DNA of 64,000 bases from a virus, in IMG/VR virus record IMGVR_UViG_3300012642_000011, positions 320,001 to 384,000 of that record; one strand, written 5' to 3'. Made by a program: the position numbers and the translations under genes. Below are positions 1-14,859 of the stretch, piece by piece (positions within the stretch are counted from its first letter, which is position 1; each line of letters begins with the position of its first letter). The notes under the pieces were generated by a model. The model made no database searches and had not been told where the DNA came from. It worked only from the letters and a program-made list of their open reading frames with translations.

Positions 1-187
1 CATCACCGATCTTCTGGGCCAGGTCATTCAGAGCATCCTCGTAGGAGACATGCACATCGTCGCTGAAGTGCTCCTGATCGTCCTCGAACACATCTCGATA
101 CCCCGTCTTGTACTCCCCGTTGGAGATCTTGGCGACGTAGTAGGTCAGGGCCTTGTTCCCCGTGGAGAACTCGTTGATGATCTTCAT
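1..187 (-). CDS. hypothetical protein, partial (extends past the left window edge)
   Basis: Open minus-strand frame starting at the ATG whose complement lies at 185-187 (MKIINEFSTGNKALTYYVAKISNGEYKTGYRDV...). An AGGAAG Shine-Dalgarno sits 6 nt upstream on the minus strand. The plus-strand frames here are closed by stops. Confidence 0.5.
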   Translation of the reverse strand, partial: MKIINEFSTGNKALTYYVAKISNGEYKTGYRDVFEDDQEHFSDDVHVSYEDALNDLAQKIGD

Positions 188-229
188 GATCTTCCTTTTC
201 TGTGAAGGCGGTGTTTAACTCTTGCTCTC

Positions 230-259
230 ATCATAAGCACAGGGACGCTCCAATGTCAA
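230..259 (-). promoter_or_regulatory. sigma70-like promoter read on the minus strand as TTGACA-N18-TATGAT; the spacer carries the conserved motif ATGGAGCGTCC (plus-strand GGACGCTCCA at 243-252)
   Basis: Hexamers read directly from the sequence. The motif abuts the -35 hexamer, and the element lies about 35 nt upstream of the ATG at 187. Confidence 0.4.
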
Positions 260-293
260 CCACGGATCATCACGTCTTCTCTGCTCCCTGTTG

Positions 294-605
294 TCAACCA
301 CGGATCACAGGTGCAGGCGGGTGACCACTACCGCCGCCCTTACAATAGGACTCATGCCAAATGGGCAATGAGCAGTCATCTGCATGCAATCCGAACGTCT
401 CTCCCCATGGTCTCATTCTATACGAAATGCCGAAACACAGATGGCACTGTGAAAGATCCTCATTGGGGCCTTCTGGTCCACGGTGTAACCCACGGGGACA
501 CGGAATCTCACCGCGCCTGATCTTTTCCTGCAACTCCTGATACTCCTGCAACGCTCCGTTAGCGATGCGCTCACGTGCTGCTTTCCTGAATGCATTCTCG
601 CTCAT
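294..605 (-). CDS. hypothetical small protein (103 aa)
   Basis: ORF with a good SD (GAAGGAGA) upstream of the ATG at 603-605. The N-terminal half (MSENAFRKAARERIANGALQEYQELQEKIRR) looks protein-like, but the C-terminal half is low-complexity, so the true stop may lie earlier or the call may be wrong. Confidence 0.35.
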   Translation of the reverse strand: MSENAFRKAARERIANGALQEYQELQEKIRRGEIPCPRGLHRGPEGPNEDLSQCHLCFGISYRMRPWGETFGLHADDCSLPIWHESYCKGGGSGHPPAPVIRG

Positions 606-707
606 GGCATTCTCCTTCGATAGTAGTGCTTTATTTTACCAAGATAGATGCTATGTTGACCATTTGTTACAGCAGGGGGCAAGGGGACACAGAGTGATCT
701 ACTAAGG

Positions 708-750
708 ATAGGCGGTAACACCCAATGTGTTACCGCCTATCTGTTGTGTT
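708..750 (+). terminator. perfect 14-bp stem hairpin (ATAGGCGGTAACAC/GTGTTACCGCCTAT) followed by a T-rich tract; probably a bidirectional terminator
   Basis: Inverted repeat read directly, with CTGTTGTGTTTC downstream on the plus strand. It lies immediately 3' of the minus-strand ORF that ends at 751. Confidence 0.5.
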
Positions 751-1287
751 TCAGAGGGAGTCGTCAGCCACAGCCGAGAGGACGTAATTCTTGGACTCGG
801 GATCAAGAAGCGTGCTCATCACGCCGAGGGTCTTCTTGGTCTTCTCGTACACCTCGCCCACGGTCACGTTGGTGTCCAGACCATTCACGTCCACGGCCAC
901 TGCGAACGGGTTATCACTGCGCCAAACCTCCTCTTCGGTCGTGTGGCGATACACCTCCATGCCGGACAGTTCGGACAGGACAGCAACAGCCTTCTAGCCA
1001 ATCTCATCCTTGACAGTGATCTGGTTCTCATCACCGTCAAGGATCTCGATGACAGCATCCTTCACGCCGTCTGTCTCCAGACGCTCCACGTGACCCCCGT
1101 AGTCGAGGCACTCAACCCAGATCAGGGTAACCGACACGGCTCCCTCGTACTCGGAGTGAGAGAGAGCCAACTGCATGGGCGAAGTGATCCCCTGAAGGAA
1201 GAAAATGGGGAGGTTGTTGTCCTGTGTGCTCATCCACTCGGGGAGTTCAAGCATCGGGGTGTTCAGATCAAACAGATTGGTCATCAT
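751..1287 (-). pseudogene. hypothetical ORF interrupted by a single in-frame TAG (plus-strand complement CTA at 994-996); either a pseudogene or a readthrough candidate
   Basis: ORFs 994..1287 and 751..960 are in the same frame and separated only by the TAG, and the intervening codons are all sense (KAVAVLSELSG). The downstream piece has no SD of its own. The upstream start at 1285-1287 has a promoter containing the conserved motif. Confidence 0.4.
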
Positions 1288-1329
1288 GTCCTTCTTTCAA
1301 AGTAATCGGTCTTGCTCTGTCATGGATGA

Positions 1330-1359
1330 ATCTACCACAGGGGACGCTCCATGCGCAAC
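1330..1359 (-). promoter_or_regulatory. sigma70-like promoter (GTTGCG-N18-GTAGAT on the minus strand) with ATGGAGCGTCC in the spacer (plus 1342-1352)
   Basis: Same architecture as the promoter at 230-259. It lies about 45 nt upstream of the ATG at 1287. Confidence 0.35.
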
Positions 1360-1425
1360 CTGATACTCACATTATTTTTTTGCAGATAGTTCTCAACAAG
1401 ACAGAGGGGACACAGATAACACTAC

Positions 1426-1465
1426 GGGGTGAGCATGGCATCTACCCGAACACCATGCTCACCCC
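1426..1465 (-). terminator. 13-bp stem hairpin (GGGGTGAGCATGG...CCATGCTCACCCC) 3' of the minus-strand gene ending at 1480
   Basis: Perfect inverted repeat read from the sequence. There is no clear U-tract on the minus strand, so it may act as a processing site or a weak terminator rather than a classical one. Confidence 0.35.
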
Positions 1466-1479
1466 GTGAAATCAGCAGT

Positions 1480-1710
1480 TCACTTGGCAAAATCCTCTGT
1501 CGCGTCAAGCGAAATGTCATCCGTGACAGGAACCTCTCCATCGATCTCCTCCCACGGGCAAGGACGTGGACGACGCACGATCCGCCACGCGCCCTCACGT
1601 GCGCCATCCTCTTCGAACTCACGCATGATTGCACTGACGGCATTGAGACCCATTCCCTCATACAAAATCTCGCCCGTTCGCGTTCGCTTGATCGCGTACT
1701 CATACGACAT
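1480..1710 (-). CDS. hypothetical small protein (76 aa)
   Basis: ORF with a strong SD (AAGGAGA) 7 nt upstream of the ATG. Its promoter (TTGACA-N18-TATCCT, plus 1751-1780) contains the conserved motif at 1764-1774. Confidence 0.5.
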   Translation of the reverse strand: MSYEYAIKRTRTGEILYEGMGLNAVSAIMREFEEDGAREGAWRIVRRPRPCPWEEIDGEVPVTDDISLDATEDFAK

Positions 1711-1827
1711 GATGATTCTCCTTCAAACACTGATTTCATTGTCTCTTGTCAGGATACACAGAAGGACGCTCCATTGTCAAGAATACATCAGGTCACGTTT
1801 TCCAGACATGGGGACACAGTGTTGCCA

Positions 1828-2271
1828 TCAAGCACCCAAGCCTACACCTGATTCTTTGGACAACTGTGTGATGAACCTCGTGATCTTCTTTGTTTCCAAG
1901 ATAGCAAGGCTCTGATCATTCACCACACCAAAAGTCTCCCCCACATCGTTGTAGTCCATGCTGTGCCAGACGCCCAAGGGGACGCTCGAAGAAGCAAACT
2001 CCTTGCCGACAACAAGAGAACCATCTCTTTCTGAAACCTTGTAGAGACCAAAAGGAGCGTGCAAATGATCCTCAGGGGAATCGTAGAACTCGAAGACGAA
2101 CTTGCGTGGCTTGCGGGAGAGTTTATCCAGTTCAGCCATGATGGCCTCAGCAACGCTCAGCAAGGAAAGCGTCCTCTGTACTCGATTGTACGCGTTGATT
2201 ACATCTGCATGAGAATTCTGAATTCCTAAACGCAGTTTTCTCACACCTGATGCAGTCACTTTTGTCGCCAT
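1828..2271 (-). CDS. hypothetical protein (147 aa)
   Basis: ORF with protein-like composition. An upstream region at about 2354-2380 carries the conserved motif next to a TATGAT -10 hexamer. Confidence 0.5.
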   Translation of the reverse strand: MATKVTASGVRKLRLGIQNSHADVINAYNRVQRTLSLLSVAEAIMAELDKLSRKPRKFVFEFYDSPEDHLHAPFGLYKVSERDGSLVVGKEFASSSVPLGVWHSMDYNDVGETFGVVNDQSLAILETKKITRFITQLSKESGVGLGA

Positions 2272-2453
2272 GATCTCTCTTCTCTCAGTCAGCAGATTGC
2301 TATATTCATCTTTGCAGATTGTATCAAAACATCCCCACGTCTAAGATTTAAAGATCATAAGAGGACGCTCCATTATTGAAGGTGTTGCACTCTATGCAGG
2401 TTCATGATACTGTGGAAGCAAGTTGATAACTCACACACCACAAGGAGACCGTC

Positions 2454-2768
2454 ATGAAGAAGATGACCGCAGAGCAGATGCAGGACTACCGAGAGAACTT
2501 CGGTGATGTCCCCAATAGCAGAATGGCATACGCCAATGAGTACGAGCGAGGGAAGTTCCTCAAGAAGCATGGGTTCAACGCTGATGCCAACGACGACATC
2601 TTCTCTGATACCAAGTACGTGTACTGTGTCTCTCACATTCGTCCTCACACTGTGGGCTGGTGTACTGTAGGCGCAGCTAACCAGTACCCTCTTGTTGCAC
2701 AGGATGATGTGTCTGCGCTTCAGGAAACGCGCAATCTCAACTTCCCCATCATGGGCGATAAGGACTGA
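2454..2768 (+). CDS. hypothetical protein (104 aa), paralog of the gene at 2864..3199
   Basis: SD ACAAGGAGACC upstream. It shares MQDYRxNFG...DTKYVYCVSHxxPHTVGWCTV with its downstream neighbour. Confidence 0.6.
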   Translation: MKKMTAEQMQDYRENFGDVPNSRMAYANEYERGKFLKKHGFNADANDDIFSDTKYVYCVSHIRPHTVGWCTVGAANQYPLVAQDDVSALQETRNLNFPIMGDKD

Positions 2769-2863
2769 GCACCCTTCACAGGACGCTCCATACTCTTGCA
2801 CGCTGAGCGCTCATGTGATAGGCTAGAAGCACCACTTGAGAAGTAAACCACAAGGAGACCATC

Positions 2864-3199
2864 ATGGATCAGATGACCGTAGAGCAGATGCAGGACTACC
2901 GAGATAACTTCGGTCCTGTCTCCCTCAGCAGCAACGAGGGTGAACACCATCGCTTTAAGTACTTCAAGTCGCGCGATATGGACGTGTCCGCACCTGATAC
3001 GATCTTCCCTGACACCAAGTACGTGTACTGTGTCTCTCACATGAATCCTCACACCGTGGGTTGGTGTACTGTGCGTGTTGCCAATAAGTACCCCCTGCTC
3101 TCCACTGATCGTGAGAAGGCTATCGAGGAATGCCGCGACCTTGACTTCCCGCTGTTCGAGGACGTGGAGAAGATGCGTCGTCTGGCCCAGAAGCCCTGA
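2864..3199 (+). CDS. hypothetical protein (111 aa), paralog of the gene at 2454..2768
   Basis: It has the same SD and the same conserved protein blocks. The duplication extends into the 5' leader, and the GGACGCTCCAT motif sits 84 and 92 nt upstream of the two ATGs. Confidence 0.6.
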   Translation: MDQMTVEQMQDYRDNFGPVSLSSNEGEHHRFKYFKSRDMDVSAPDTIFPDTKYVYCVSHMNPHTVGWCTVRVANKYPLLSTDREKAIEECRDLDFPLFEDVEKMRRLAQKP

Positions 3200-3354
3200 T
3201 AATCAAGCCTGTGATGGCTACACAGCAAGGTCATATCATCCACCGATTCGATGGATTTTAAAAACTGATCACAGTGAGAGTTGCAATGCTTGCAGATGTG
3301 TAGTACACTTTAAATCGTAAGCACGAACCACTCATTGAAATCAAGGAGAATGCC

Positions 3355-3657
3355 ATGAAGATGAACACGAACACCAAGACCGTCAAGCAGACCACGCTCA
3401 TTTTCGAGATTGAGAGCGAGGATGACGTTGCGACCTTCAACGATGAGATCGAGAAGGCGCTTGAGCAGGCGTGGGATGATGATGCAGAGCAGAGCATCTA
3501 TGATGACGAGGTTATTGCGCCTAAGATCGAGCTTAGCCCCAACTGGAACGGAAACGCCGTCATTGGCTACAAGGGGGGCGTTATCGCCACCTTCGATCAC
3601 CTTCCCGTGACCATCGAGGTTCCGGCTCACAACACGTCGGCAACCAACGTCATGTGA
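3355..3657 (+). CDS. hypothetical acidic protein (100 aa), paralog of the gene at 3758..4069
   Basis: SD AAGGAGAA upstream. It shares the N-terminal TTLxFxxxSEE...FND motif and the C-terminal PVTIxxPAHNTSA motif with its paralog. Confidence 0.6.
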   Translation: MKMNTNTKTVKQTTLIFEIESEDDVATFNDEIEKALEQAWDDDAEQSIYDDEVIAPKIELSPNWNGNAVIGYKGGVIATFDHLPVTIEVPAHNTSATNVM

Positions 3658-3670
3658 CCTGAAGAAGAGC

Positions 3671-3716
3671 AGGGGAGAGACCACGAGGCATCATTCGTGG
3701 TCTCTCCCCTTTTTTG
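3671..3716 (+). terminator. rho-independent terminator (16-bp GC-rich stem plus TTTTTT), immediately followed by a GCTATAAT -10-like element
   Basis: Stem AGGGGAGAGACCACGA/TCGTGGTCTCTCCCCT read directly, with the T-run at 3711-3716. Confidence 0.7.
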
Positions 3717-3757
3717 CTATAATAATCGTAAATCACACGTACAAGAAGGGAGATAAA

Positions 3758-4069
3758 ATGGAGATCACAGCAAGCAATGAGAACGTCAAGCACACTACTC
3801 TCACCTTCGTCCTCAACAGCGAGGAAGAGGTTGTCGTCTTCAACGATGTCGTGGAAGAGCATTTGATCGAGGCATGGGAAAACGGAGCGTTCAAGAGCGA
3901 AAACGAGGACGAGAGGCACGTTCCTCAGATCGAGAAGGAAGAGACAGATGATCTCAATGAATACAGTCTCCTGTACCACATTGACGTGCTGGACACCTTC
4001 ACTGGCGAGGACTTCCCGGTGACCATTCAGATTCCGGCTCACAACACGTCAGCAGTCAGCATCCTGTGA
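3758..4069 (+). CDS. hypothetical acidic protein (103 aa), paralog of the gene at 3355..3657
   Basis: SD AAGGGAGA upstream. The C-terminus PVTIQIPAHNTSAVSIL matches the C-terminus of its paralog. Confidence 0.6.
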   Translation: MEITASNENVKHTTLTFVLNSEEEVVVFNDVVEEHLIEAWENGAFKSENEDERHVPQIEKEETDDLNEYSLLYHIDVLDTFTGEDFPVTIQIPAHNTSAVSIL

Positions 4070-4080
4070 CTTGAACAAGA

Positions 4081-4126
4081 AAAGGGGAGACCACGAGGTT
4101 AGCGTGCGTGGTCCCCCTTTCTATTT
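4081..4126 (+). terminator. rho-independent terminator, a near-copy of the one at 3671-3716
   Basis: Stem GGGGAGACCACG...CGTGGTCCCCC followed by TTTCTATTT. Confidence 0.65.
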
Positions 4127-4236
4127 GCCTAGATCACGCAGAAAACGCACGAATAAATGAGGGGACACAAATCTTGTATCCTTTACCTTTTGATAGAATT
4201 ACATTATAGACGTTCCACTTTCTCAAAGGAGTATTC

Positions 4237-5001
4237 ATGGCGACAAAGACTGTCACCCTCTCAAGCAACCCCCTCAGGCATCCAAAAATGCCCAGCATGA
4301 TCCTTGGACCTGTAGCCTCCCGAGGTGGTCAGGCATGCTACGCGCCTGTAGCGTTCCTGCTCAAAGATGGGACGCTCTACACGTCTCTCAAGACAGGTAA
4401 AATCGATGAATGGAGTGATACTGAATGCTCATCATTCCGCTTCCTCAAGTACACTTACACCGATGATTTCACCCGCGAGGGGGATCAGTGGTACATGAAC
4501 GGCGAGCCGCTCTACGACGAAGAGGAATACCCTGTCATCCCCCATAGGGAGGGGCAGACCATTGCAGAGGTCACAGCCTTCATAGACACGCCTCTGACGG
4601 CAGATGAGGACGCTCCTACCACCAGCGCTATTGAAGCCATCTCTACGCCTACAGGAAGCGACGAAGGAGAGCAAGAGGTTGCTCAAGCGTCTCTGGACAC
4701 TACCGATTCCATGAACACAGGAGAGCACTATTTCAAGAACCTTGTGCGTTTACCAGATGGGGCTTGGTTTGGACTGTCCGAAACGTCAGGACGCTTGATG
4801 TGGGTCAGTGATGAGCAGTTGAAATCATTCTCCATTAATAGGGCTGCTAACGATGTCGTCTCCTATGTTAAAGATGGCGGCAAGTGGATACAAAGAGGCA
4901 AAGGCCCCATTGGAAAGCCATTCCCATGGGTTACCGCGCTCATTGTCCTCATGGTGGTAGCAGCGGCAGCATTCGGTTATTGGTGGTTCGTCATGAAGTG
5001 A
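4237..5001 (+). CDS. hypothetical protein with a C-terminal transmembrane anchor (254 aa)
   Basis: SD AAAGGAG upstream. The hydrophobic C-terminus VTALIVLMVVAAAAFGYWWFV suggests a tail anchor. Confidence 0.55.
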   Translation: MATKTVTLSSNPLRHPKMPSMILGPVASRGGQACYAPVAFLLKDGTLYTSLKTGKIDEWSDTECSSFRFLKYTYTDDFTREGDQWYMNGEPLYDEEEYPVIPHREGQTIAEVTAFIDTPLTADEDAPTTSAIEAISTPTGSDEGEQEVAQASLDTTDSMNTGEHYFKNLVRLPDGAWFGLSETSGRLMWVSDEQLKSFSINRAANDVVSYVKDGGKWIQRGKGPIGKPFPWVTALIVLMVVAAAAFGYWWFVMK

Positions 5002-5082
5002 TAGGGACGCTCCATATCTTAATACCATCATCATCTCATATGCAATTGTTAGAGAAAACAGCATCATAGCGAGGTGGTGCAA

Positions 5083-6276
5083 ATGGGAATAGTGATCACA
5101 AAGACGGCCTACGGGAAGTCAAAAACGGATGGCACATGGGAGAGATGCCGCGCAAAGCCTGAGAACAGGGGTAAGGGGCGATGTCCGCACGGAGAGCATC
5201 AAGACCTCACCAAAGACGAGGAGCAAATCATCCATGTGCTCAACGATGAGATACTCATCAAGAAGTACGGCAGTACAGCAAGGTTGTCCAAGAAGGGGGA
5301 CGCTCCTTCCTCAACAGGCAAGAGGACGCAGCAATCAGGGCAAGCATCGTCCAAGCCTAGAAGGAAGCGCAGAGGACAAGGCAGCAGGAGAAACAAGATC
5401 GCCAAGGTGGGAAATAACTCCTTTGCTACCCATGAAGGGGGACGCTCCCTTACAAGAAAAGAATTCGATACATCAAGCCAGAAGGTGGCAGAATCTTTCC
5501 CCCAAGAGGATTGGAAAGCCATCAATAGTTTTTATTCAAAGTTCTCTGAAGTATCTGAAAAGGATGAAGCGAAGAAGAACTTTGATTCTGCGGTGAAGTC
5601 CGTTAAGGAATACATGAAGAGTGATGACCCTGATGCTGTGAAGATGAGGGAATTCTTTGGTGATGATGTGAACGTGGATGACGTGGCAGAGATACTGGTC
5701 TACCAAGTCAACGCTATGCGTTCTCCTATCACGTGGGAAACCAAGAGGCCGGGCACTATCAAGCGTTCTATAGCCACCACGGTGAACAACGACATGAACA
5801 AGGAGAGATACGTTGCCAGCGTCATGTTCTTTGGTGGAAGGTGCTGCTACTGCAATCAGCCCATGTCCAAACGAGAAGGTGACTCCAAGGCTACAGGCGA
5901 GCACATTACACCCGTGAACCCTTCTGGTAACGGAGTGATGGGAGGGACACGCTATGGCAACATGGCTCTTGCTTGTTCAGGGTGCAACAACGAGAGAGGC
6001 AACAAGGAGTTGAATGAGTGGATCAGCGAGACCTCAAGGCTTTCAGAGGAGAATAAGAAGGCTTCTATGGATCGTATTGACCAGTTCAGGAAGTTTGCTC
6101 TCTACAAGGAGTACACGCCGGAGCAGTCGAATGCCATCAGGGCGGCTATCAAGGAGACAGAGAAGTTCATGTATGAGAGAAGGAATCCTAATGGTTCGTA
6201 TGTGGACAATGGGATCAAGGAGATCAGGGATCACTTGAAGATCACGATTCATGATCTGAATGAGATGCTGAGGTGA
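5083..6276 (+). CDS. HNH-family endonuclease with a basic, low-complexity N-terminal region
   Basis: SD GAGGTGG 8 nt upstream of the ATG at 5083. The C-terminal region carries an HNH-like Cys/His/Asn signature (CCYCN...EHITPVN...ALACSGCNNERGN). The GGACGCTCCAT motif sits 70 nt upstream. Confidence 0.6.
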   Translation: MGIVITKTAYGKSKTDGTWERCRAKPENRGKGRCPHGEHQDLTKDEEQIIHVLNDEILIKKYGSTARLSKKGDAPSSTGKRTQQSGQASSKPRRKRRGQGSRRNKIAKVGNNSFATHEGGRSLTRKEFDTSSQKVAESFPQEDWKAINSFYSKFSEVSEKDEAKKNFDSAVKSVKEYMKSDDPDAVKMREFFGDDVNVDDVAEILVYQVNAMRSPITWETKRPGTIKRSIATTVNNDMNKERYVASVMFFGGRCCYCNQPMSKREGDSKATGEHITPVNPSGNGVMGGTRYGNMALACSGCNNERGNKELNEWISETSRLSEENKKASMDRIDQFRKFALYKEYTPEQSNAIRAAIKETEKFMYERRNPNGSYVDNGIKEIRDHLKITIHDLNEMLR

Positions 6277-6308
6277 GGGGACACAGTTCTTAGTCGCCTA
6301 GAAGCAAG

Positions 6309-6345
6309 AAACCCTGTAAGCATTGCTTACAGGGTTTCTGTATTG
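6309..6345 (+). terminator. rho-independent terminator for the HNH gene
   Basis: Perfect palindrome AAACCCTGTAAGCA/TGCTTACAGGGTTT followed by a T-rich tail CTGTATTG. Confidence 0.65.
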
Positions 6346-6410
6346 ATTAACTCGTGGTGGTGCTCACAAGGCTTAAAGAGATGGATGCTGGCGAGGATTT
6401 AGCACCCACG

Positions 6411-6490
6411 TACCCCTAACGGGATTCGAACCCGTATGCCGAAGCGAGAGATTTTAAGTCTCCTGTGTATACCAATTCCACCATAGGGGC
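6411..6490 (-). tRNA. tRNA-Leu (anticodon UAA)
   Basis: Cloverleaf folded by hand: acceptor GCCCCTA/TAGGGGT, anticodon stem GGAGA/TCTCT with loop CTTAAAA, a short extra arm, T-arm ACGGG-TTCGAAT-CCCGT and discriminator A. CCA is not encoded. Confidence 0.7.
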
Positions 6491-6758
6491 AAAAGTGGGA
6501 TGTTGATCCTGCCTTGTACTTCGGCAGAACCAACAGCCCTTGCGGGTTGAGGGTAATGACTCCCCGTACCGCGATGAGCAAGATGGCCCATCAGCAACCT
6601 CCCGACCTTTCTCGGTAGTCCGCACTGTACATTGCTTTGAAAGAGCATGCACGGTCAGTGCCAACCGCCTCCCTGACGTGTGAGGAAACGCCTGCAAGGT
6701 CATTACTCCTTACAGGACATTGGTGAATCGTCATTATCGATTCCAACCAATGCTTTGT

Positions 6759-6830
6759 ACTCCCAACGGGATTCGAACCCGTGTCGTCGCCGTGAAAGGG
6801 CGATGTCCTAGGCCACTAGACGATGGGAGC
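6759..6830 (-). tRNA. tRNA-Glu (anticodon UUC)
   Basis: Acceptor GCTCCCA/TGGGAGT, anticodon stem TCGCC/GGCGA with loop CTTTCAC, and T-arm ACGGG-TTCGAAT-CCCGT. Confidence 0.75.
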
Positions 6831-7056
6831 GTGGCCCCTGACTGCACTATGAACCCCATGTGTTCTCACGGAATCCACCATGCATTCAGGAATACTATCA
6901 GGCAAGTCCCTACCTACCACATCGTCCTGATGACCTTTTTCAAGTCATAGCGGACAGGGAACTCTTTACCAAGTTGATGTTCGGCCCAAAATTCTTTTCA
7001 TTATTCTGTTGTTCTGATTCTAGTGTATCACACTCGGATCAGTTATGCAAGTCCAT

Positions 7057-7113
7057 TATAGTGTTGGTTGCCAGACGGCGGAACCCTTTGCCATCTGGCA
7101 ACCAACACTATAC
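7057..7113. repeat. perfect 19-bp inverted repeat (TATAGTGTTGGTTGCCAGA ... TCTGGCAACCAACACTATA) with a 19-nt loop
   Basis: Read directly from the sequence. It lies in a non-coding spacer between tRNA-Glu and tRNA-Asn and resembles IS200/IS605-end or REP-like hairpins. Confidence 0.6.
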
Positions 7114-7178
7114 CAGAAGGTTTGACTACCAGAGGGCAGTGCTTTGCTCAAAGCCCGTCTGGTGTCCTACCCTCCCAA

Positions 7179-7230
7179 GGTTTGATTACCATGCTGTACC
7201 CTGAGAATAATACCGCATGGTAATCAAAAC
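7179..7230. repeat. 16-bp imperfect hairpin (GGTTTGATTACCATGC...GCATGGTAATCAAAAC) abutting the 3' end of tRNA-Asn, plus a 14-bp direct repeat AAGGTTTGA(C/T)TACC at 7119 and 7177
   Basis: Inverted and direct repeats read from the sequence. Confidence 0.5.
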
Positions 7231-7233
7231 TCG

Positions 7234-7305
7234 CTCCCCCACCTGGATTCGAACCAGGAACCTACGCATTAACAGTGCGGCGCTCTGCCGTTGAGCTATA
7301 GGGGA
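7234..7305 (-). tRNA. tRNA-Asn (anticodon GUU)
   Basis: Acceptor TCCCCTA/TGGGGGA with one G-U pair, D-arm GCTC-AACGGCA-GAGC, anticodon loop CTGTTAA and T-arm CCTGG-TTCGAAT-CCAGG. Confidence 0.7.
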
Positions 7306-7451
7306 ATGTCTGGCTTATACAGTCATTTAACTCACTTGCCCCCGAGTGAGCACCAGAAAATCTCTGTTCAGTTACCAATCTCCAACTTCTTATATGAACT
7401 ACGGCGATGCTAAAGACAACGCCGTTTCTGGCTTCACAGGAATATGCTTAA

Positions 7452-8753
7452 TCAGACCTTATACAGATCATTCTTAAGTCTAACAATCCCTCCACCAGCA
7501 CAACCCTCCGTTCCAGAGGTGACCAAACTCAAGTACCTTTCACCAAGAATAACCATATTCCTCGCAGCATGAGAATCACGATCCTCACTAAAACCACAAG
7601 AAGAACACAAGAAAACACTCATATTAACATCATGCTTCGTCAAGACACCACAAGGAGAACACCACGCAGTAGTAGCCACCCACTTAGGCAGCATTACCGC
7701 ATTCTCATGATTTTTCAAGCGCGCTTTAACACGACCAAGCACACCATGATGGATCTTCTTAGAACCACGTGCTTTCGAATTCTTGTTCTTCCACGATACT
7801 AACATTTCATCTTGGAAGAACACTACACTATCCTTAGTTAACCTGCTTACTAATTGATTAGCAAACTCATTCTTCAAATGATCAGTATTCTGATACTCTC
7901 TCTTGATCTTAGCCAAAGTCTTGCGATAACTGTTGGAGTTCTTTACCTGACGAGACAGTTTTCTCTGCAATCTCGCCATCCTCTCCTGTTTGCCAGTAAT
8001 AATCGCGTTAACAACCTCACCATTATCAAGAGTTAAAGCATTCTTTACACCCATGTCCACACCGATTTTATTCGTAGGTGCAACCTTAACTGCTCGTGGC
8101 TGATAAGTGGTCACTACTAAATGATAACCATCAGCACGATACACTAATTTAGCATTCGCAAACTCAAGACTATCAGCACACAATTGCTCATAACCGCGAA
8201 CACGTAATCTGCCGGGAATGTTCTGAACACGGATTTTAGTCATCATCCCTTTTGAATTAGGAATCAGATCATAAGTCACGCCATATTGTTTGAGATTGAT
8301 AGAATCGACATTGCGAACAAACTTTAGTTTTCCAATCTTGCGACCATTCTTCTTCAATGCAGATAATGATTTGCGATCATTGCTCAATTGAGTTATCACG
8401 CTTTGCTGCATTTGGCTTCCAAGATGTTTGATTGCTCTTTTCTCAGTATCTCCGTTGGGGACTTTTACCTCAACTTCACCTTTGAGTTCTTTGATGTAGT
8501 CAAGATCAAAACGTTCTGCTGCAAGGGCAGCATTGCGAATCCATTTAGCCTCATGGAAAATACTTTTAATAGCCTCTTTTTGCTGTTTATTCATGGAAGA
8601 TTGTACGATTTTTAGGTCATACACTTTGACAATCATGGTTTTTCTGCGTTCACGAGTTGCTTTTCCTGCTTCTTTGATTCTCTTGTTTTTGGCAAGTCTG
8701 GCTTCTTCTGTGAGGGTTTTTGGTGCGCTTGTGCGTTGTGCCATGATTGTCAC
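7452..8753 (-). CDS. tnpB: TnpB (OrfB), IS605-family RuvC-like RNA-guided endonuclease
   Basis: 433 aa with split RuvC motifs (IGVDMGV ... FFQDE ... DRDSHAARN) and a zinc finger (CSPCG-x17-CSSCG) between RuvC-II and RuvC-III. SD AAGGAGG upstream. Confidence 0.85.
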   Translation of the reverse strand: MTIMAQRTSAPKTLTEEARLAKNKRIKEAGKATRERRKTMIVKVYDLKIVQSSMNKQQKEAIKSIFHEAKWIRNAALAAERFDLDYIKELKGEVEVKVPNGDTEKRAIKHLGSQMQQSVITQLSNDRKSLSALKKNGRKIGKLKFVRNVDSINLKQYGVTYDLIPNSKGMMTKIRVQNIPGRLRVRGYEQLCADSLEFANAKLVYRADGYHLVVTTYQPRAVKVAPTNKIGVDMGVKNALTLDNGEVVNAIITGKQERMARLQRKLSRQVKNSNSYRKTLAKIKREYQNTDHLKNEFANQLVSRLTKDSVVFFQDEMLVSWKNKNSKARGSKKIHHGVLGRVKARLKNHENAVMLPKWVATTAWCSPCGVLTKHDVNMSVFLCSSCGFSEDRDSHAARNMVILGERYLSLVTSGTEGCAGGGIVRLKNDLYKV

Positions 8754-8805
8754 CTCCTTGATATAATAGGCTATCTTATCTTATTATATCAAAAGGTTGG
8801 TTGTG

Positions 8806-9198
8806 ATGGGTGCTGTTCAGAATTTGCGTTATCATTTTGTTTTTGCTACGAAGTTTCGTAGGGGGTGTTTTAGTGGTATTGAGGGTGATGTGGTGAGGGC
8901 GATTGAGTATGCTGTGTCGAAGTCTTCATGCAAGTTAGAGCGTGTTGCTGTTGAAGATGGGGATCATGTTCATTTGGTAGTGAGGATGTCTGGGACTTAT
9001 TCTGTTTCTGGTTTAGTGAACCGTTTGAAGTCTTTGAGTTCTCATCATTTGTGGGAGATGCAGGGGGATCATTTGAGAAGATTTTATTGGGGTGGTCGTC
9101 ATTATTTGTGGAGTGGTGGTTATTATGCTGCTACTATTGGCGATGTGAGTGCTGATCATGTTGATAAGTACCTGAAAAAGCAAGGCCACTGGAAATAA
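8806..9198 (+). CDS. tnpA: TnpA, IS200-family Y1 HuH transposase
   Basis: N-terminal YHFVFATKFRR, the HuH motif HVHLVV and the conserved Tyr-containing C-terminal region. The start is probably ATG 8806 (SD AAAAGG), and the ORF track extends to an upstream TTG at 8797. Confidence 0.8.
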   Translation: MGAVQNLRYHFVFATKFRRGCFSGIEGDVVRAIEYAVSKSSCKLERVAVEDGDHVHLVVRMSGTYSVSGLVNRLKSLSSHHLWEMQGDHLRRFYWGGRHYLWSGGYYAATIGDVSADHVDKYLKKQGHWK

Positions 9199-9305
9199 TA
9201 CACTTGCGCTTACATCAGCGAGGCTGAAGACCTCGCCGCTTTACGCGCTTTCGTGTAACGGTATCAATGAAAACATCAAGCGTTTTTGGAATTAACGATC
9301 TCATA

Positions 9306-10052
9306 TTAAGAGATCTCTTCGAGATGGATCAATGGTCTTGAATATCCCTCTACCTTGTGATCCATATCAACACTGATAACCCTGAACTTTGTTCCTCTGG
9401 CAAGGGTAACCTCTTCCTCATAAGATCCATCCTCATTCCACTTCGCTGATTGAGTAGTATCAATCTTCATCAGAACACCAGAGATATAATCAGGAGCATT
9501 CATACCAGAGAACTCATGAGATATGTCTTCAGATGTAGAAGTAGACACGAACTCATTGAAGACAACCTCGTTACCAGCCTCCCCGATATGCTTCTTCACC
9601 CATTCTACAGGATTCATGTCAGTCTTGCGAGGAAGATCGGAATTTGCTGTCTTCACCCCACGAAAAAGAGTATGATTTGATTTTCTACGAGGGCACCTCG
9701 CCAACGCTTTATCCATGTTATCAATCACTTTTCTTTGATCATCAGATAAACTGCCCACATCATCACGTCTCAAAGCATCATTGATCTCACCATGCTCAAA
9801 GGAACCATACGATTCCCAAGCATCCCTCTCATCATCAGAAAGAGAATTTCTCCATGTTGATACAAGAGAAGAATGATTTGTAGAAGACAAGGACGACACA
9901 GAAGAGAATGATCTCTCCAAAACTTCCTCAGAAAAAGAATGTGCCTCCTTCATGTTCTCAAAATGCTGTACTGAACCCAAGGGGCATTCAATCTTATCTG
10001 CCCTGCATCTGTTCATCTCGCCAGTTTTGCTGCTCACGTGATACTTGACCAT
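9306..10052 (-). CDS. mono-ADP-ribosyltransferase, R-S-E class (phage Alt/Mod-like or C3/iota-like ART fold)
   Basis: The catalytic triad motifs appear in the canonical order: LFRGV (Arg), FVSTSTS (STS) and YEEEVTLARGTKFRVISV (ExE followed by hydrophobics). Start taken at Met12, which has a strong GGGGAGGG SD; the ORF track extends to 10085. Confidence 0.65.
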   Translation of the reverse strand: MVKYHVSSKTGEMNRCRADKIECPLGSVQHFENMKEAHSFSEEVLERSFSSVSSLSSTNHSSLVSTWRNSLSDDERDAWESYGSFEHGEINDALRRDDVGSLSDDQRKVIDNMDKALARCPRRKSNHTLFRGVKTANSDLPRKTDMNPVEWVKKHIGEAGNEVVFNEFVSTSTSEDISHEFSGMNAPDYISGVLMKIDTTQSAKWNEDGSYEEEVTLARGTKFRVISVDMDHKVEGYSRPLIHLEEIS

Positions 10053-10189
10053 TATCCCTCCCCATGTTTTCAGATGAACACACATGATGATTCTCTAATC
10101 TCACACACGATCTAAACTATTGATGCCAATCAACCCCGATCCAGCATGGACTAGGAAATCATTTCTGCAAAAGAAGCGAAGTTGTGTAT

Positions 10190-10278: not shown

Positions 10279-13200
10279 TCAGACCTGACATGACTCACAG
10301 TAAGAGTTTGCATCCTCAACCTCTGTTCCTGCAAGTGTGGAAGGACGTACACGGACGTAGTAAATCGTCTTGATACCCTTCCTCCATGCATAAATGTATG
10401 CCTTATTGAGATCTCTGGTTGTGGCCTCATCAGTCACAAAGAGAGTCAAAGAAGCACCCTGATCAATGTGAGGTGTAGCAGCAGCATACACATCAATGAT
10501 GGCTTCAGTTCCTACCTTGTATGCATCAGCGTAGTAAGGCAGAGTTTCCTCACTCAAGTATGGCTGTGGGTAGAAGACTCTACCAATCTTTCCTTCCTTC
10601 CTTGCCTCAATGTTCTGAGCAACAGGATGGATAGAAGAAGTAGAATAAGAAATGTAACTGATGCTTCCTGTTGGCGCAACAGCGATCAGGTACGCATTAT
10701 ATAGACCATCTCTCATCACATCTTCCTTCAACTGCTTCCAGTCTTCAGCAGTAGGCACATGCATACTTGTCTTCTTCAGAAGTTCTTTGACCTTCTCAGT
10801 CTTGACTTCTGAGTACTGACCGTTTGTGTACATGTCGAAGAACTCACCTGTAGCATACTTTGACTTCTCAAACTCGAAGAATGTCTTTCCCTTCTCCTTT
10901 GCCATCTTGTTGGATGCCTTCATAGCGTAGTAACGTACTGACATGAAGTACAAGTTGGTGAAGTCTACTGCTTCCTCAGATGCGTAATAGATGTGCTCAC
11001 GTGCAAAGAATCCGTGAAGGTTCATTGCACCCAGACCAATAGCATGACTCAACTGGTTTCCACGCTCAATGGATGGAGCAGATGAGATGTTGGACAGTTC
11101 TGACACTACTGTGAGCGCACGTACTGCTGTTTCCACTGACTGACCAAAATCAGGTGAATCAAACATGTTGGCAACATTGAGAGAGGCGAGGTTACAGGAG
11201 ATGTCTCTTCCAACGTGGTCATAGTTTCCATCTTCATTAAATGTTGACGGAGTTGAGACCTGAAGAATTTCAGAACAGTTTCCTGTGACAATGCCATTGA
11301 AGATAATGGAGTGACCATCTTCTACAGTGACATCATATACATCCTCTACACCGTCAGGAACAATGTCTCTGACAACAGCCTTGTAGCGGTGTGTGCTGTA
11401 TGGTGTTCTGTTCTTATCCCATACCAATGACTTTTCCTGCCATGCTTTCTGCTGCCTGTCTGTCCAGTTCAGAAGTTCATAGAGAGCAACGACTTCAGCC
11501 TGTGCAGATGCCTTCAGATTCCACACTTCTGCTACATCATACTCCTTCTCTCCGCCCTTGCTATCAGGAAGGGTATCCTTACCTGCCTTGCGGGAGAGGT
11601 ACAGCCTAGTGAACACGTTCATGTTCAATAGCATCCTCTGAACTTCAAGGAGAAGTTCCCTATTTGTGGAAGTCAGTTCAATGGTTGCAGACTTTGATGT
11701 TCCTGTAATGCAACCATCTGCCTGATAGAGACCCGAAAGGTAGCCAACCTGTGTTGACCTGTCTCCTCTGAGTACGAAGTCAGGGACAATCTCCTTATTA
11801 TCCTTAGTGAAATCATTGTTTTTAAGGATTTCCGCAAGGATTGTAGAAGAAAGCGTCCATTTATTGTACTTCTCGCTTTCAGTGAAAGTAGGAATACGTG
11901 TGGACTCATCAACGAGACCAATGGCATCATCACTGTAGAAGATGTTCTCCACGATCTTATTGATCTTGCTGATCTCTGACTTATTCTTTGGCTTGATTGT
12001 CAGTCTTGCAGATGGTGAGTACTTAGAGTCCTTGTCCTCTACAAGAGAACCCTCACCTGCAATGAATCCTGCAATGAATGCAAGATCAGGCTTGTGAACG
12101 TGTCCGTATGCACCCTCTGATGGTTGAATGAGAACTTTGTCACCTGGCTTGACCTCACCCAAGGGGATCTTCACAAGGATAGGATCATCATTCTCGTCCT
12201 TACGCTCCACGTAGATCTTATGGTACTCTGTTGCTCTTAACTCATACCCCTCAATAGTGGACATTTTGAACACAGGAGTATTCTCTGCTGTCTTGAACAT
12301 CTTGGTTGATGTAACACTGGCTACTCCGTCTGCATCAAGATCCATAGTACGTGCTCTCTCATCAACGATGACGTTGAAGGAATTTTGTGATTCAAAGAGG
12401 TCTCCTGCACGGACGTTTCCTGAATCTGTAAGCAACTGTGTCTCTGCTGTGACGCAGAGGTTGGAATGTGTAACCTTTCCATCCAACTGTGACTGCGCGT
12501 TTACGTTGTCCTCAAACATGAGGTAGGGGTATCCTGACTCAAACTGTAGCTCAGCAATGGTCTGGAAGAGTGAACGTGCTTTAATCTTTTGCTTACGGAT
12601 CTTGGGGTTATCTACCATATCGTAGTACTCTTCCGTGATATCGATGTCACTGAAAGGCTTACCGTAGAATTTCTCAACATCATAAGGTGAGAACAGATAC
12701 ATGTCATCATTGCGCTTAGCAAGTTCAAAAGTGATGTCAGGAATGACAATACCAATGGAAAGTGTCTTAATCCTGATCTTCTCATCTGCGTTCTCACGCT
12801 TAGTGTCAAGGAATCTCATGATGTCAGGGTGGTGTGCGTTCAAGTACACTGCACCTGCTCCCTGACGTGCTCCCAACTGGTTAGCATAGGAGAATGAATC
12901 CTCAAGAAGTTTCATGACAGGAATGATTCCAGAGGACTGTCCCTCAATGTTCTTAATAGGAGCACCCTGCTCACGAACGTTGGTGAGGTTCAAAGCAACA
13001 CCGCCACCACGCTTAGACAACTGCAAAGCGTTGGTAATGTTTCTTGCAATGGATTCAAGGTTGTCTTCTGTTCTCAAGAGGAAGCAGTTGTGAGCAATGT
13101 ACCCTCTTGCTACATAGGTATGATTGTTCTCTACTTCAAGATTGTAAACAGTAGTAGTTTTTTCTTCGAATGAAGATGCCTTTACTTTATACATTACGTA

Positions 13201-14859
13201 TCCATCAATGATCCTTGCAAATCTAAACTGATCAGAGGCAAGTACACCATCAAATCTATCTGCATTTTTATCAATGTATTTAATGAAGTCAACATTGTTT
13301 TCGCTGATAGCAGGAATCTTCAAGGTGGATGTAGGTGACCCTGAAGCACTGAAGAAGGTTCTCTCATACGGAAGAAGTCCAATCCTCAAAGCAGCAGTTC
13401 TTAATTGAGAAATAATCTCAGGGTTGGACAAAGAGACTTCTGCGCTTCTGTCAAGGACTGTTCCATCCCCTCTGAAGCATCCTACAAGCATACCTTTGAG
13501 GAATTCATCAGAAGCATCAAGTAGAAGAGTGTTCAACCTCTTCTTATTAAATCCAGTTCCGATAAGGGAAACAAAGAATTCTCCCATAATTTGAGACCAA
13601 GCAGCCACATTCGTTGAGCCATCTACGTTTTCTCTCACAGTAGGCGTAAAGCCGAAGATTCTTTCAATCAGATTGACGGTATCCTTGATAAAGATATCTT
13701 CTTTTGATCCGAAAGTGAATCGAATTCCCTTATTTACCCCATTCGTGTAATGAGCATATCCCTCAGAAATGTAGTATCCTACAAGTCGTCCGAAATCTTC
13801 GTTCACAGAGATGGTGTTTTTCAAAGAATATGAGTTCTTTAAAACATTAGACCCCTTCTTTTTATTGTTTTTCTTGTCGATTGATCCAATGTAAACAAGA
13901 TCGTTTTCTACATCAACATCAAGAGTCCTACCCCATGTAGATGGCGTTTTAACGTAATCTGAAATCTTCAGTTCTGAAACAGATTCGGAACTTCTTCTTG
14001 GAACAGACAGAGCAATGAAATCACCAGGAAGAACTTCTCCCGCTGCAATCCACTTTACATTCTCAGTACTTCCATCACCATCAATTAAGGTGTCTTGAGA
14101 TGAGTTTTTTCTGTAAACAAGGACAGGGTGCTCTTTAGTAGAAGAGAACTTTTCTTTTTGTCCAATAACAGTAAGAGAAACTATTCCGTCACTTTCCTCA
14201 CGAGACATAACTCCTGTTACCTTTTGCACGCTGCCATCGTGTGTGTAAACTGAATCCCCCTCAACAATGTTGGAGATTGTAATTTCACCATGGGGTGTAG
14301 AAATTGGTGTATCGCCTTCGAAACACGACACCATCTCACCACGCTGCTTCTTTCCTGCATTCAAGAAGGTTGGAGTGGCAGGCTGGAAACGTCCGCCCAT
14401 CATCTCATCAAGCAAGTGCTCTGCAGCATCCTCGTCACCATCAGCAAGGTAAAGAGCAACAACGACAACCCTATCCTCATAGCGTTCAAGATATCTCTTG
14501 CCGTCGAATGTCTTCAGAGTATAGGATGTGTAGTACTTGAATGCTCCCATGAAGGATGGGAAACGGAACTTGTAAGCGTATGCCTTCTTGTAAAGTGACT
14601 TCACGAAATCGAAGTCATACTTGTCGAAGAGTTCCTTCTCGTAGTAGTCATTCTTGAAGAGGTAATCCAGTTTCTCTTCAAGATCGTGGAAGAACACTGT
14701 GTTCTCATTGACATGGTGGAGGAAGAATGCTCTGGCTGCCTCTTTGTCCTTATGCAACTGAAGTTTTCCATCTTCACCCATCAGTTTCACCTGGGCGTTC
14801 AACTCATGGTAATCCACGTTCTCTTCTTTGTCGTGGGTTGTTCCATTGAATTCAGACAT
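10279..14859 (-). CDS. nrdE: class Ib ribonucleotide reductase alpha subunit NrdE, interrupted by two inteins
   Basis: Extein sequence is collinear with NrdE (FQPATPTFLNAGKKQRGEMVS|CFLLRTEDN ... NQLGARQGAGAVYLNAHHPDIMRFLDTKREN ... SNL|CSEILQV ... C-terminal YCESCQV). The extein is 720 aa, and SD AAGGAGG lies upstream. Confidence 0.9.
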   Translation of the reverse strand: MSEFNGTTHDKEENVDYHELNAQVKLMGEDGKLQLHKDKEAARAFFLHHVNENTVFFHDLEEKLDYLFKNDYYEKELFDKYDFDFVKSLYKKAYAYKFRFPSFMGAFKYYTSYTLKTFDGKRYLERYEDRVVVVALYLADGDEDAAEHLLDEMMGGRFQPATPTFLNAGKKQRGEMVSCFEGDTPISTPHGEITISNIVEGDSVYTHDGSVQKVTGVMSREESDGIVSLTVIGQKEKFSSTKEHPVLVYRKNSSQDTLIDGDGSTENVKWIAAGEVLPGDFIALSVPRRSSESVSELKISDYVKTPSTWGRTLDVDVENDLVYIGSIDKKNNKKKGSNVLKNSYSLKNTISVNEDFGRLVGYYISEGYAHYTNGVNKGIRFTFGSKEDIFIKDTVNLIERIFGFTPTVRENVDGSTNVAAWSQIMGEFFVSLIGTGFNKKRLNTLLLDASDEFLKGMLVGCFRGDGTVLDRSAEVSLSNPEIISQLRTAALRIGLLPYERTFFSASGSPTSTLKIPAISENNVDFIKYIDKNADRFDGVLASDQFRFARIIDGYVMYKVKASSFEEKTTTVYNLEVENNHTYVARGYIAHNCFLLRTEDNLESIARNITNALQLSKRGGGVALNLTNVREQGAPIKNIEGQSSGIIPVMKLLEDSFSYANQLGARQGAGAVYLNAHHPDIMRFLDTKRENADEKIRIKTLSIGIVIPDITFELAKRNDDMYLFSPYDVEKFYGKPFSDIDITEEYYDMVDNPKIRKQKIKARSLFQTIAELQFESGYPYLMFEDNVNAQSQLDGKVTHSNLCVTAETQLLTDSGNVRAGDLFESQNSFNVIVDERARTMDLDADGVASVTSTKMFKTAENTPVFKMSTIEGYELRATEYHKIYVERKDENDDPILVKIPLGEVKPGDKVLIQPSEGAYGHVHKPDLAFIAGFIAGEGSLVEDKDSKYSPSARLTIKPKNKSEISKINKIVENIFYSDDAIGLVDESTRIPTFTESEKYNKWTLSSTILAEILKNNDFTKDNKEIVPDFVLRGDRSTQVGYLSGLYQADGCITGTSKSATIELTSTNRELLLEVQRMLLNMNVFTRLYLSRKAGKDTLPDSKGGEKEYDVAEVWNLKASAQAEVVALYELLNWTDRQQKAWQEKSLVWDKNRTPYSTHRYKAVVRDIVPDGVEDVYDVTVEDGHSIIFNGIVTGNCSEILQVSTPSTFNEDGNYDHVGRDISCNLASLNVANMFDSPDFGQSVETAVRALTVVSELSNISSAPSIERGNQLSHAIGLGAMNLHGFFAREHIYYASEEAVDFTNLYFMSVRYYAMKASNKMAKEKGKTFFEFEKSKYATGEFFDMYTNGQYSEVKTEKVKELLKKTSMHVPTAEDWKQLKEDVMRDGLYNAYLIAVAPTGSISYISYSTSSIHPVAQNIEARKEGKIGRVFYPQPYLSEETLPYYADAYKVGTEAIIDVYAAATPHIDQGASLTLFVTDEATTRDLNKAYIYAWRKGIKTIYYVRVRPSTLAGTEVEDANSYCESCQV
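11278..12456 (-). mobile_element. intein 2 in NrdE (393 aa), inserted immediately before the thiyl-radical active-site Cys of the NLCSEI motif; LAGLIDADG endonuclease domain
   Basis: Begins CVTAETQLLTDSG, ends IIFNGIVTGN, and is followed by the +1 Cys of CSEILQV. Blocks LAFIAGFIAGEGSL and VGYLSGLYQADGCI are present. Confidence 0.8.
13087..14325 (-). mobile_element. intein 1 in NrdE (413 aa, Cys1 to Asn591 of the precursor) with a LAGLIDADG homing-endonuclease domain
   Basis: Begins CFEGDTPIS, ends VENNHTYVARGYIAHN, and is followed by a +1 Cys. LAGLIDADG blocks LVGYYISEGY and LKGMLVGCFRGDG are present. Confidence 0.85.

Follow-up and report, generated by a model that had tools for sequence, protein, structure and literature searches.

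Organization of the cassette block

The window considered here is a 64 kb stretch of DNA (positions 320,001 to 384,000 of the IMG/VR record IMGVR_UViG_3300012642_000011) from the ~330 kb genome of an uncultured phage, and the elements under study are two short asymmetric motifs, hereafter M1 and M2, which recur on a single strand of a gene block at its left end. The analysis covered the window and ~24 kb of the block. The block occupies the first 6.3 kb of the window, with a GC content of 0.50-0.52 compared to 0.39-0.45 in the rest, and the step is sharp (positions 1-6300 against ~0.41 for positions 8000-64000). Beyond the window it can be followed leftwards through overlapping loci: L001 reaches 9.7 kb further, giving a contiguous 16 kb of block, and L029 and L035 add ~8 kb, so that the block is at least ~24 kb long, with sites persisting to the last base covered at the left. 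All relatives compared are close (at least 93% identity).

The block consists of small ORFans in both orientations, two thirds of them leftward, each of which has its own near-consensus promoter of the sigma-70/sigma-A type, along with an AGGAG ribosome-binding site and in most cases a hairpin. We presume from the type of its promoters and from its genes that it is an early or host-takeover region. To its right lie three tRNA genes, an IS605-type element and then 57 kb of nearly exclusively minus-strand genes, in which every open reading frame (ORF) of at least 200 amino acids (aa) is leftward except that at 19216-20238 (+).

Two motifs locked to one strand

M2 was defined as GGGGACACAR, extended to GGGGACACAR(AT), and M1 as GGACGCTCC, extended to GGGACGCTCCAT (Table 1). 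The window contains six plus-strand copies of M2, all between positions 494 and 6286, and no further plus-strand copy in the other 57 kb; one-mismatch matches on the minus strand elsewhere number three, which is the chance level. The nine exact copies of M1 are likewise all on the plus strand, within 243-5448. The word GGGGACAC occurs seven times versus 0.85 expected, a count reached in 0 of 100 shuffled sequences; six of the seven copies are on the plus strand of the first 6.3 kb, and the sole other copy is at 18349 on the minus strand. The first-pass annotation had listed five plus-strand copies of M2. All five are exact matches, with one of them at 1406-1415 rather than 1407-1416, and the list is extended by the variant inside the gene at 294-605.

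Table 1. Positions of the motif copies and associated features in the window (nucleotide coordinates)
Feature	Position	Strand	Context
M2 GGGGACACAG	683-692	+	flanked by the promoter of gene 294-605(-) and by terminator hairpin 706-742
M2 GGGGACACAG	1406-1415	+	between M1 promoter 1329-1358 and hairpin 1424-1467
M2 GGGGACACAG	1810-1819	+	between M1 promoter 1751-1780 and the stop of gene 1828-2271(-); without hairpin
M2 GGGGACACAA	4161-4170	+	after hairpin 4084-4117, upstream of rightward gene 4237-5001
M2 GGGGACACAG	6277-6286	+	abuts the HNH stop codon TGA 6274-6276; before bidirectional hairpin 6307-6339; convergent gap
M2 variant GGGGACACGG	494-503	+	within leftward gene 294-605; absent from the first-pass annotation
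M2 core GGGACAC	5944-5950	+	within the HNH gene
M1 GGACGCTCC	243-251	+	spacer of leftward promoter TTGACA-18-TATGAT (259..230)
M1	1342-1350	+	spacer of leftward promoter TTGCGC-18-TAGATT (1358..1329)
M1	1764-1772	+	spacer of leftward promoter TTGACA-18-TATCCT (1780..1751)
M1	2363-2371	+	divergent gap between genes 1828-2271(-) and 2454-2768(+); outside any promoter
M1	2781-2789	+	in the gap of two rightward genes; a TTGCAC -35 follows 5 nt downstream; no leftward promoter
M1	5005-5013	+	gene 4237-5001 ends 4 nt before it; HNH gene downstream
M1, in-gene	4608-4616	+	acidic linker of a 254 aa protein
M1 variant GGACGCTCT	4370-4378	+	in-gene, codon position 2
M1, in-gene	5298-5306	+	HNH gene, starts at codon phase 3
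M1, in-gene	5440-5448	+	HNH gene, starts at codon phase 1
HNH endonuclease gene, 397 aa	5083-6276	+	right edge of the block, between M1 and M2
Hairpins	706-742, 1424-1467, 3671-3710, 6307-6339		
Promoters	259..230, 1780..1751, 662..633		
GC-rich ORFan cassette block, window part	1-6339		GC 0.50-0.52; runs ~18 kb further left

The orientation of the sites is absolute. All 39 sites in the 16 kb of block in L001 lie on a single strand (39:0), an arrangement that under free orientation has a probability of ~2e-12 in this one genome, and the same holds for the ~97% relative L029 (30:0) and for L035, a mosaic 93% relative (19:0). In terms of the individual words, plus versus minus in the window orientation, GGACGCTC and GGGACAC were counted, respectively, 22:0 and 17:0 in L001, 16:0 and 14:0 in L029, and 10:0 and 9:0 in L035, where the M1 count was made with the 7-mer GGACGCT. 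The composite of the three loci (~24 kb) contains at least 60 sites, or ~1 per 430 bp over at least 24 kb. The core common to the two motifs, GGGAC[AG]C, has plus:minus counts of 33:0 within the 16 kb block and of 1:2 over the other 57 kb; chance-level 7-mers aside, positions 7-64 kb of the window are free of M1 and M2. The strand invariance across oppositely oriented genes and the shared core pointed out in the first-pass annotation are thus real and non-random; a search for occurrence on both strands in the rest of the window and in the loci of relatives revealed no balanced occurrence, and in the relatives the motif is present and strand-locked.

The shuffles and the 39:0 strand count rule out a chance origin. 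An artefact of a recurring protein motif was rejected as well, given that the in-gene copies begin at all three codon positions in unrelated proteins; for instance, the two M1 copies in the HNH gene start in different codon phases and therefore do not encode a shared peptide motif. Avoidance of Type III or Type ISP restriction can also be discarded, as words of 5-7 nucleotides (nt) from within the sites occur on both strands: GGGAC, GGACAC and GGACGC are found 42:8, 20:4 and 27:5, respectively, in the block and on both strands in the rest of the window too, and GGACGCT is two-stranded as well. The EcoP15I sites of phage T7, which likewise display one orientation of an asymmetric word across the phage genome, are a known outcome of such avoidance, but avoidance accounts for missing inverted copies and not for the enrichment seen here.

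Anatomy and placement of the sites

Alignment of the copies yielded the consensus sequences aGGGGACACAGaAT for M2 (25 copies) and gGGGACGCTCCAT for M1 (30 copies). Both are asymmetric, 12-14 nt long, and share the skeleton GGGAC-R-C-N3-AT. A hybrid site, GGGACACTCCA, is located at ~4362 of L031, at the edge of a replaced cassette, where L035 has GGGACGCTCCA at ~3897. This replacement in a single strain means that M1 and M2 can be converted into each other at the R position via a single base change. With one skeleton and a hybrid, common recognition, as proposed in the first-pass annotation, is plausible, and M1 and M2 appear to be two versions of one 12-nt asymmetric recognition site for a protein.

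The sites are predominantly intergenic. In L001, 29 of the 39 sites fall within the intergenic 30% of the block, and 24 of the 28 intergenic gaps hold at least one site, with an occupancy of 13/15 for leftward tandem, 3/5 for rightward tandem, 4/4 for divergent and 4/4 for convergent gaps. M1 and M2 occupy different positions within the gaps. In at least 10 leftward promoters from three strains, M1 is embedded in the spacer in a single register, TTGnnn-A-TGGAGCGTCCCC-nn-TGG-TAgAnT; the promoter in front of the tRNA array of L001 is among them. The remaining M1 copies are found upstream of rightward promoters at variable distances, right after stop codons, or in a phased triplet, and copies outside the leftward promoter spacers are devoid of -35 or -10 elements. 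The triplet consists of three M1 copies with an exact spacing of 81 bp (L001 11204, 11285 and 11366) in a 700 bp non-coding stretch ~0.6-0.8 kb to the left of the window start; its cores are invariant between strains, amid hypervariable surroundings. Because the triplet and the copies at 2781 and 5005 keep the core without -35 or -10 elements, M1 cannot be regarded as a mere relic of leftward promoters.

As a rule, M2 follows the terminator hairpin of a leftward gene at a distance of 10-28 nt and precedes the next -35 element by 12-65 nt. A polymerase travelling leftward would run into M2 directly behind the hairpin at 683 and at 1406, in the convergent gap at 6277, and likewise in three gaps of L001 (9916, 9193 and 10996). 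The placement between a hairpin terminator and the next promoter, initially ascribed to all five copies, holds for 683, 1406 and 4161 but not for the other two. The copy at 1810 has no hairpin and lies 9 nt from the stop of gene 1828-2271, and that at 6277 lies at the HNH stop codon, precedes the hairpin 6307-6339 and faces a convergent tRNA without a promoter. The 10 in-gene sites of L001 are distributed over the three codon phases, mainly in low-complexity linkers; seven are in rightward and three in leftward genes, even though the rightward coding length is smaller, which represents a weak trend.

No conserved element, including a -10-like one, was detected within 30 nt downstream of either motif. 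A plus-strand promoter for an ECF-like sigma factor or a phage RNA polymerase was rejected on this basis, and the block has no Rfam match except tRNAs, so that the plus-strand transcript entertained in the first-pass annotation receives no backing.

Conserved cores at the edges of exchanged cassettes

Comparison between strains indicates that the cores are better preserved than their surroundings. The M1 8-mer core displays 0/120 mismatches versus 59/600 in the flanks (20 nt on each side), and the M2 7-mer core 0/98 versus 26/560; a stricter count, which includes one site replaced wholesale, yields 7/205 versus 43/574 (p = 0.046). In the mosaic relative, in which a neighbouring protein is only 64% identical, both the sequence and the strand of the sites are kept. 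The flanks of M1 diverge by 8.3% on the 5' side and 11.3% on the 3' side. Being hypervariable on both sides without clear polarity, they do not carry the polar mutation pattern considered as a signature of nick translation.

In three cases, cassettes gained, lost or replaced between strains join at the sites. First, a cassette encoding a 148 aa protein (L029 11774-12332) is present in L029 and absent from L030 and L031; its junction lies in a repeat consisting of the -35 element and M1, with M1 copies at L029 11757 and 12342. Second, a highly divergent allele of a 154 aa gene has been swapped in between an M1-type site and M2. Third, the block of divergence between L001 and L029 extends from the M2 at 14412 to the M1 at 13885. 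In a systematic test, three of the four edges of large blocks were within 31 nt of a site, where 29% would be expected by chance within 40 nt (p ~0.08), a result that is no more than suggestive, given the few events available.

One-way operators and roadblocks as the tentative function

Site-specific binding or processing of DNA by a protein is the best fit among the three functions contemplated in the first-pass annotation. The sites are putative protein docking sites that probably act in one direction only, and the reading that we tentatively place first, while crediting it with somewhat less than an even chance, is that they are asymmetric operators and roadblocks directed against leftward transcription, analogous to the stoperators of mycobacteriophages. 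The binding sites of L5-type repressors are asymmetric 13-mers, present in more than 20 copies within promoters and in short spaces between genes, and a flipped site loses its function (PMC9283540). The parallels with the cluster A stoperators (L5 gp71, the TipsytheTRex repressor) include asymmetric sites of 12-13 bp in dozens of copies, location in promoters and short intergenic spaces, a non-random, locked orientation and a degenerate consensus position.

Under this model, a sequence-specific protein, probably monomeric, would bind the sites and act as the cluster A operator/stoperator system does. In leftward promoters of the sigma-A type, it would bind M1 in the spacer that separates the -35 from the -10 element and block initiation, and at M2 past the leftward terminator hairpins and at the in-gene sites, it would form a one-way roadblock. 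Rightward genes would escape the block and be protected against antisense read-through. All sites would face one way because the proposed target is the leftward-moving RNA polymerase. The one-way block of transcription is assumed here from L5 gp71; flip-sensitive sites of this kind would explain the global strand lock, the promoter-less sites in convergent gaps and the extra sites in rightward genes. Confinement of the sites to the block with host-type promoters also supports the model. Finally, the conserved cores at cassette edges may double as points of cassette swap, gain and loss, because they are conserved islands in direct orientation at these edges.

Several observations weigh against such a role. 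Site orientation is independent of local gene direction: 10 sites are associated with rightward genes, 3 between and 7 inside them, in the same absolute orientation as in the leftward units. Accordingly, the orientation agrees with that of stoperators only if leftward is taken as the single blocked direction and departs from it locally, given that in cluster A phages the orientation is tied to the local gene direction. Furthermore, cluster A stoperators are genome-wide, whereas the sites described here are confined to one block of a ~330 kb uncultured phage; scans of the ~30 block proteins against Pfam and PHROG returned no candidate repressor or repressor homologue, and the one-way property itself is taken over from a different system. 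At 4161, a leftward polymerase would encounter M2 and then the hairpin, the reverse of the usual order, and the phased M1 triplet, outside promoters in 700 bp of non-coding DNA, has no obvious transcriptional role. Lastly, known one-strand nick motifs would account for the strand lock equally well.

Possible nicking and cassette exchange

The latter possibility ranks second, although we consider it improbable, at roughly one chance in five. The sites would be cut on the plus strand, at GGGAC-R-C, by a phage nickase, possibly the adjacent HNH protein, in virion or replicating DNA, and the nicks would also seed recombination at the cassette edges. All known nick motifs have a short, asymmetric consensus and are confined to one strand, whatever the gene direction. 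In phage tf, TACTRTGMC occurs at 14 sites, which span two convergent transcription units and all lie on the top strand, 11 of them in one half of the genome (PMC3517423). The 39:0 lock, which extends to the 10 in-gene copies, fits this behaviour, the degenerate R position resembles the R and M positions of the tf motif, and a hybrid site exists. The cassette junctions and divergent blocks that abut sites, as well as the position of the HNH gene at the block edge between M1 and M2, are also in line with nicking. The motifs of T5/BF23, phiKMV-like and tf/LUZ24-like phages share the one-strand, short asymmetric consensus, the regional bias and one or two variable positions. However, the density of the sites is ~10-100 times higher than in these systems, which have 4-14 nicks per genome; the sites are systematically intergenic and promoter-embedded and come in two extended forms, and the fixed register of M1 in promoter spacers is not predicted by nicking. 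In those phages, the motifs mark localized interruptions of one strand of the virion DNA that ligase can repair. The HNH gene is the sole nuclease candidate near the sites, but its link to them is one of position only, and large phages carry many HNH genes.

An extension of this idea, which we regard as still less probable, is a 'cassette code', in which an enzyme, such as the flanking HNH protein acting as a nickase, would cut one strand at GGGAC-R-C-N3-AT at every cassette edge. If so, the block would be an integron-like early region, in which promoter-equipped cassettes are exchanged between co-infecting genomes without inversions, and would constitute a novel type of programmed gene shuffling, in a giant phage.

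Only marginally less probable is cassette exchange as the primary role of the sites, through a directional site-specific or short-homology system. With sites in direct orientation, exchange would result in insertion, deletion or replacement but never inversion, and a join within the spacer would regenerate a working promoter. The 148 aa cassette junction, the 154 aa allele swap and the L001/L029 divergent block, all at sites, are as expected from such a system, and so is the occupancy of all gap types, including the promoter-less convergent gaps. Yet the events number just three or four, the edge test gives p ~0.08, and cassette edges are intergenic in any case. Moreover, no recombinase was identified, a core of 9-12 nt is short for homology-driven exchange, and selection for evolvability alone is weak. 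These readings, the stoperator-like one and those considered below are not mutually exclusive, as conserved direct repeats at cassette edges will act as exchange points whatever their first function.

Passive descent, polarity signals and host activators as unlikely alternatives

The motifs might have no separate function and might have spread by duplication of a promoter-terminator unit, with the orientation inherited and the rightward genes inserted later into the scaffold. Such a history seems doubtful, more so than either exchange or nicking. PeSLs of T4-like phages have spread in this manner, as duplicated promoter-terminator units with inherited orientation (PMC4122927). They likewise combine a stem-loop, a sigma-70-like promoter and a Shine-Dalgarno sequence between small ORFans of plastic (hyperplastic) regions, with indel and replacement junctions at the elements between close relatives, although the corresponding sample here is small, with three events. 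In the block, the unit of hairpin, M2 and sigma-A promoter with M1 recurs before leftward genes, and one tandem duplication took its M1 along (spacing ~410-418 bp). By contrast, the orientation of PeSLs follows the gene served and they have no extra conserved core, whereas the 12-nt core described here persists without a promoter, within genes and in convergent gaps, always on one strand. More specifically, the non-promoter copies (2781, 5005 and the phased triplet) lack -35 and -10 elements with the core intact; the 10 in-gene copies, in three codon phases, are all on the plus strand; the cores are conserved amid hypervariable flanks; and the orientation is kept in 4/4 convergent gaps.

A polarity signal for a DNA-tracking machine, either a Chi-like one that would guard the DNA entering first against RecBCD, AddAB or AdnAB, or a KOPS/SRS-like guide for a translocase involved in ejection or packaging, appears very unlikely. 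The absolute orientation, the G-rich cores of ~8 nt and the clustering of the sites in what is possibly the first-expressed and first-injected part of the genome are compatible with it. Nevertheless, the neighbouring 57 kb of this genome lack the sites, which rules out a replicon-wide polarity word of the Chi/KOPS type, and for the same reason the connection to replication or packaging polarity raised in the first-pass annotation finds no support. The existence of two distinct extended 12-mers, their precise placement in promoter spacers and beside hairpins, and a density far above that of Chi or KOPS also argue against it.

The weakest candidate, by a small margin, is a host transcription factor, either a WhiA/WhiB-type activator or a sigma region 4-like domain recruited to early promoters: M2 contains the asymmetric WhiA box GACAC, M1 contains GACGC, and Lsr2-domain genes hint at an actinobacterial host, but the absolute strand lock, the convergent-gap sites, the 12-nt conservation beyond GACAC and M1 in the spacers would all be left unexplained. 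The WhiA consensus GACAC works at variable spacing from the -35 element and on either strand relative to it (PMC10243135), and the variable spacing matches the variable position of M2.

Occurrence elsewhere and implications

Window positions 1-7529 are 99.97% identical to DNA on a 332 kb metagenomic contig. Searches of phage GenBank records at the DNA and protein levels gave chance matches only, with no close isolated phage, and pattern scans for the motifs in viral and metagenome contigs, as well as scans of viral contigs with the HNH and Lsr2 proteins, likewise produced chance matches only. A full-text literature search for the motif strings returned nothing relevant and no report of the motif. 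Nor did we find a published precedent for the combination of an absolute strand lock with two interconvertible 12-mers, near-full occupancy of the gaps and restriction to one block of a giant phage. The sites nevertheless resemble known stoperators, nick motifs and PeSLs, and we infer their possible functions from this resemblance.

If the sites are one-way silencers, polar silencing of the stoperator type extends from temperate mycobacteriophages to a giant uncultured phage, and early genes of mixed orientation would be switched under a simple rule in which one strand corresponds to a single blocked direction. If instead they are nicks or recombination joints, they would explain why hyperplastic ORFan regions, the likely seat of anti-defence and host-takeover genes, are shuffled so fast. 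In practical terms, the 12-mer offers a handle for capture of the binding protein, for delimiting early regions in related metagenomic phages and for testing polarity.

Gene content of the block and its neighbourhood

Scans of the ~30 block proteins against Pfam, PHROG and NCBIfam detected no helix-turn-helix or repressor family; the Pfam and PHROG scans yielded only Lsr2 DNA-binding domains and one HNH protein, the latter being the only family match among the block genes of the window (first 6.3 kb). The Lsr2 domains are found in two proteins of L001, with one (11636-11983) and three (12776-13435) copies, respectively, which raises the idea that, in an actinobacterial host, the GC-rich early block might evade or counteract AT-directed xenogeneic silencing.

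Two tandem pairs of paralogous genes, 2454-2768/2864-3199 and 3355-3657/3758-4069, have a unit of ~404-412 bp; the first pair was duplicated along with its M1, and the second has no site between its members. The leftward gene 751-1287 (-) is interrupted by an in-frame TAG at 994-996, the sole mismatch in 7.5 kb. The gene is intact (177-178 aa) in the other assemblies of the strain, and the TAG is probably a nonsense variant or a sequencing error rather than a sign of recoding.

Beside the tRNA genes, an IS200/IS605-type element (~7527-9202) encodes TnpB (7452-8753, -) and a Y1-transposase-like ORF (8797-9198, +). Its insertion point corresponds to L001 ~3066-3080, and past the insertion the window is devoid of 13 of the 16 L001 tRNAs and of the M1-type promoter of that array (L001:45).

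The following 57 kb encode a putatively intein-bearing ribonucleotide reductase, a RecG-like helicase, DnaB, RecA and an RNA ligase. They also encode a class A penicillin-binding protein (30932-33421) that carries a PASTA domain, an ADP-ribosyltransferase (9306-10085), which is an Alt/Mod-like candidate, and a Bax1-inhibitor-like membrane protein (42800-43501); these three are unusual cargo and point to a Gram-positive host. Database matches of the penicillin-binding protein gave no host assignment, the best of them, in metagenome-assembled genomes of Firmicutes, being 29% identical. The large subunit of the ribonucleotide reductase (10279-14859) is 1526 aa long, with inserts matching intein and HNH-like families, which suggests that it holds at least one intein.

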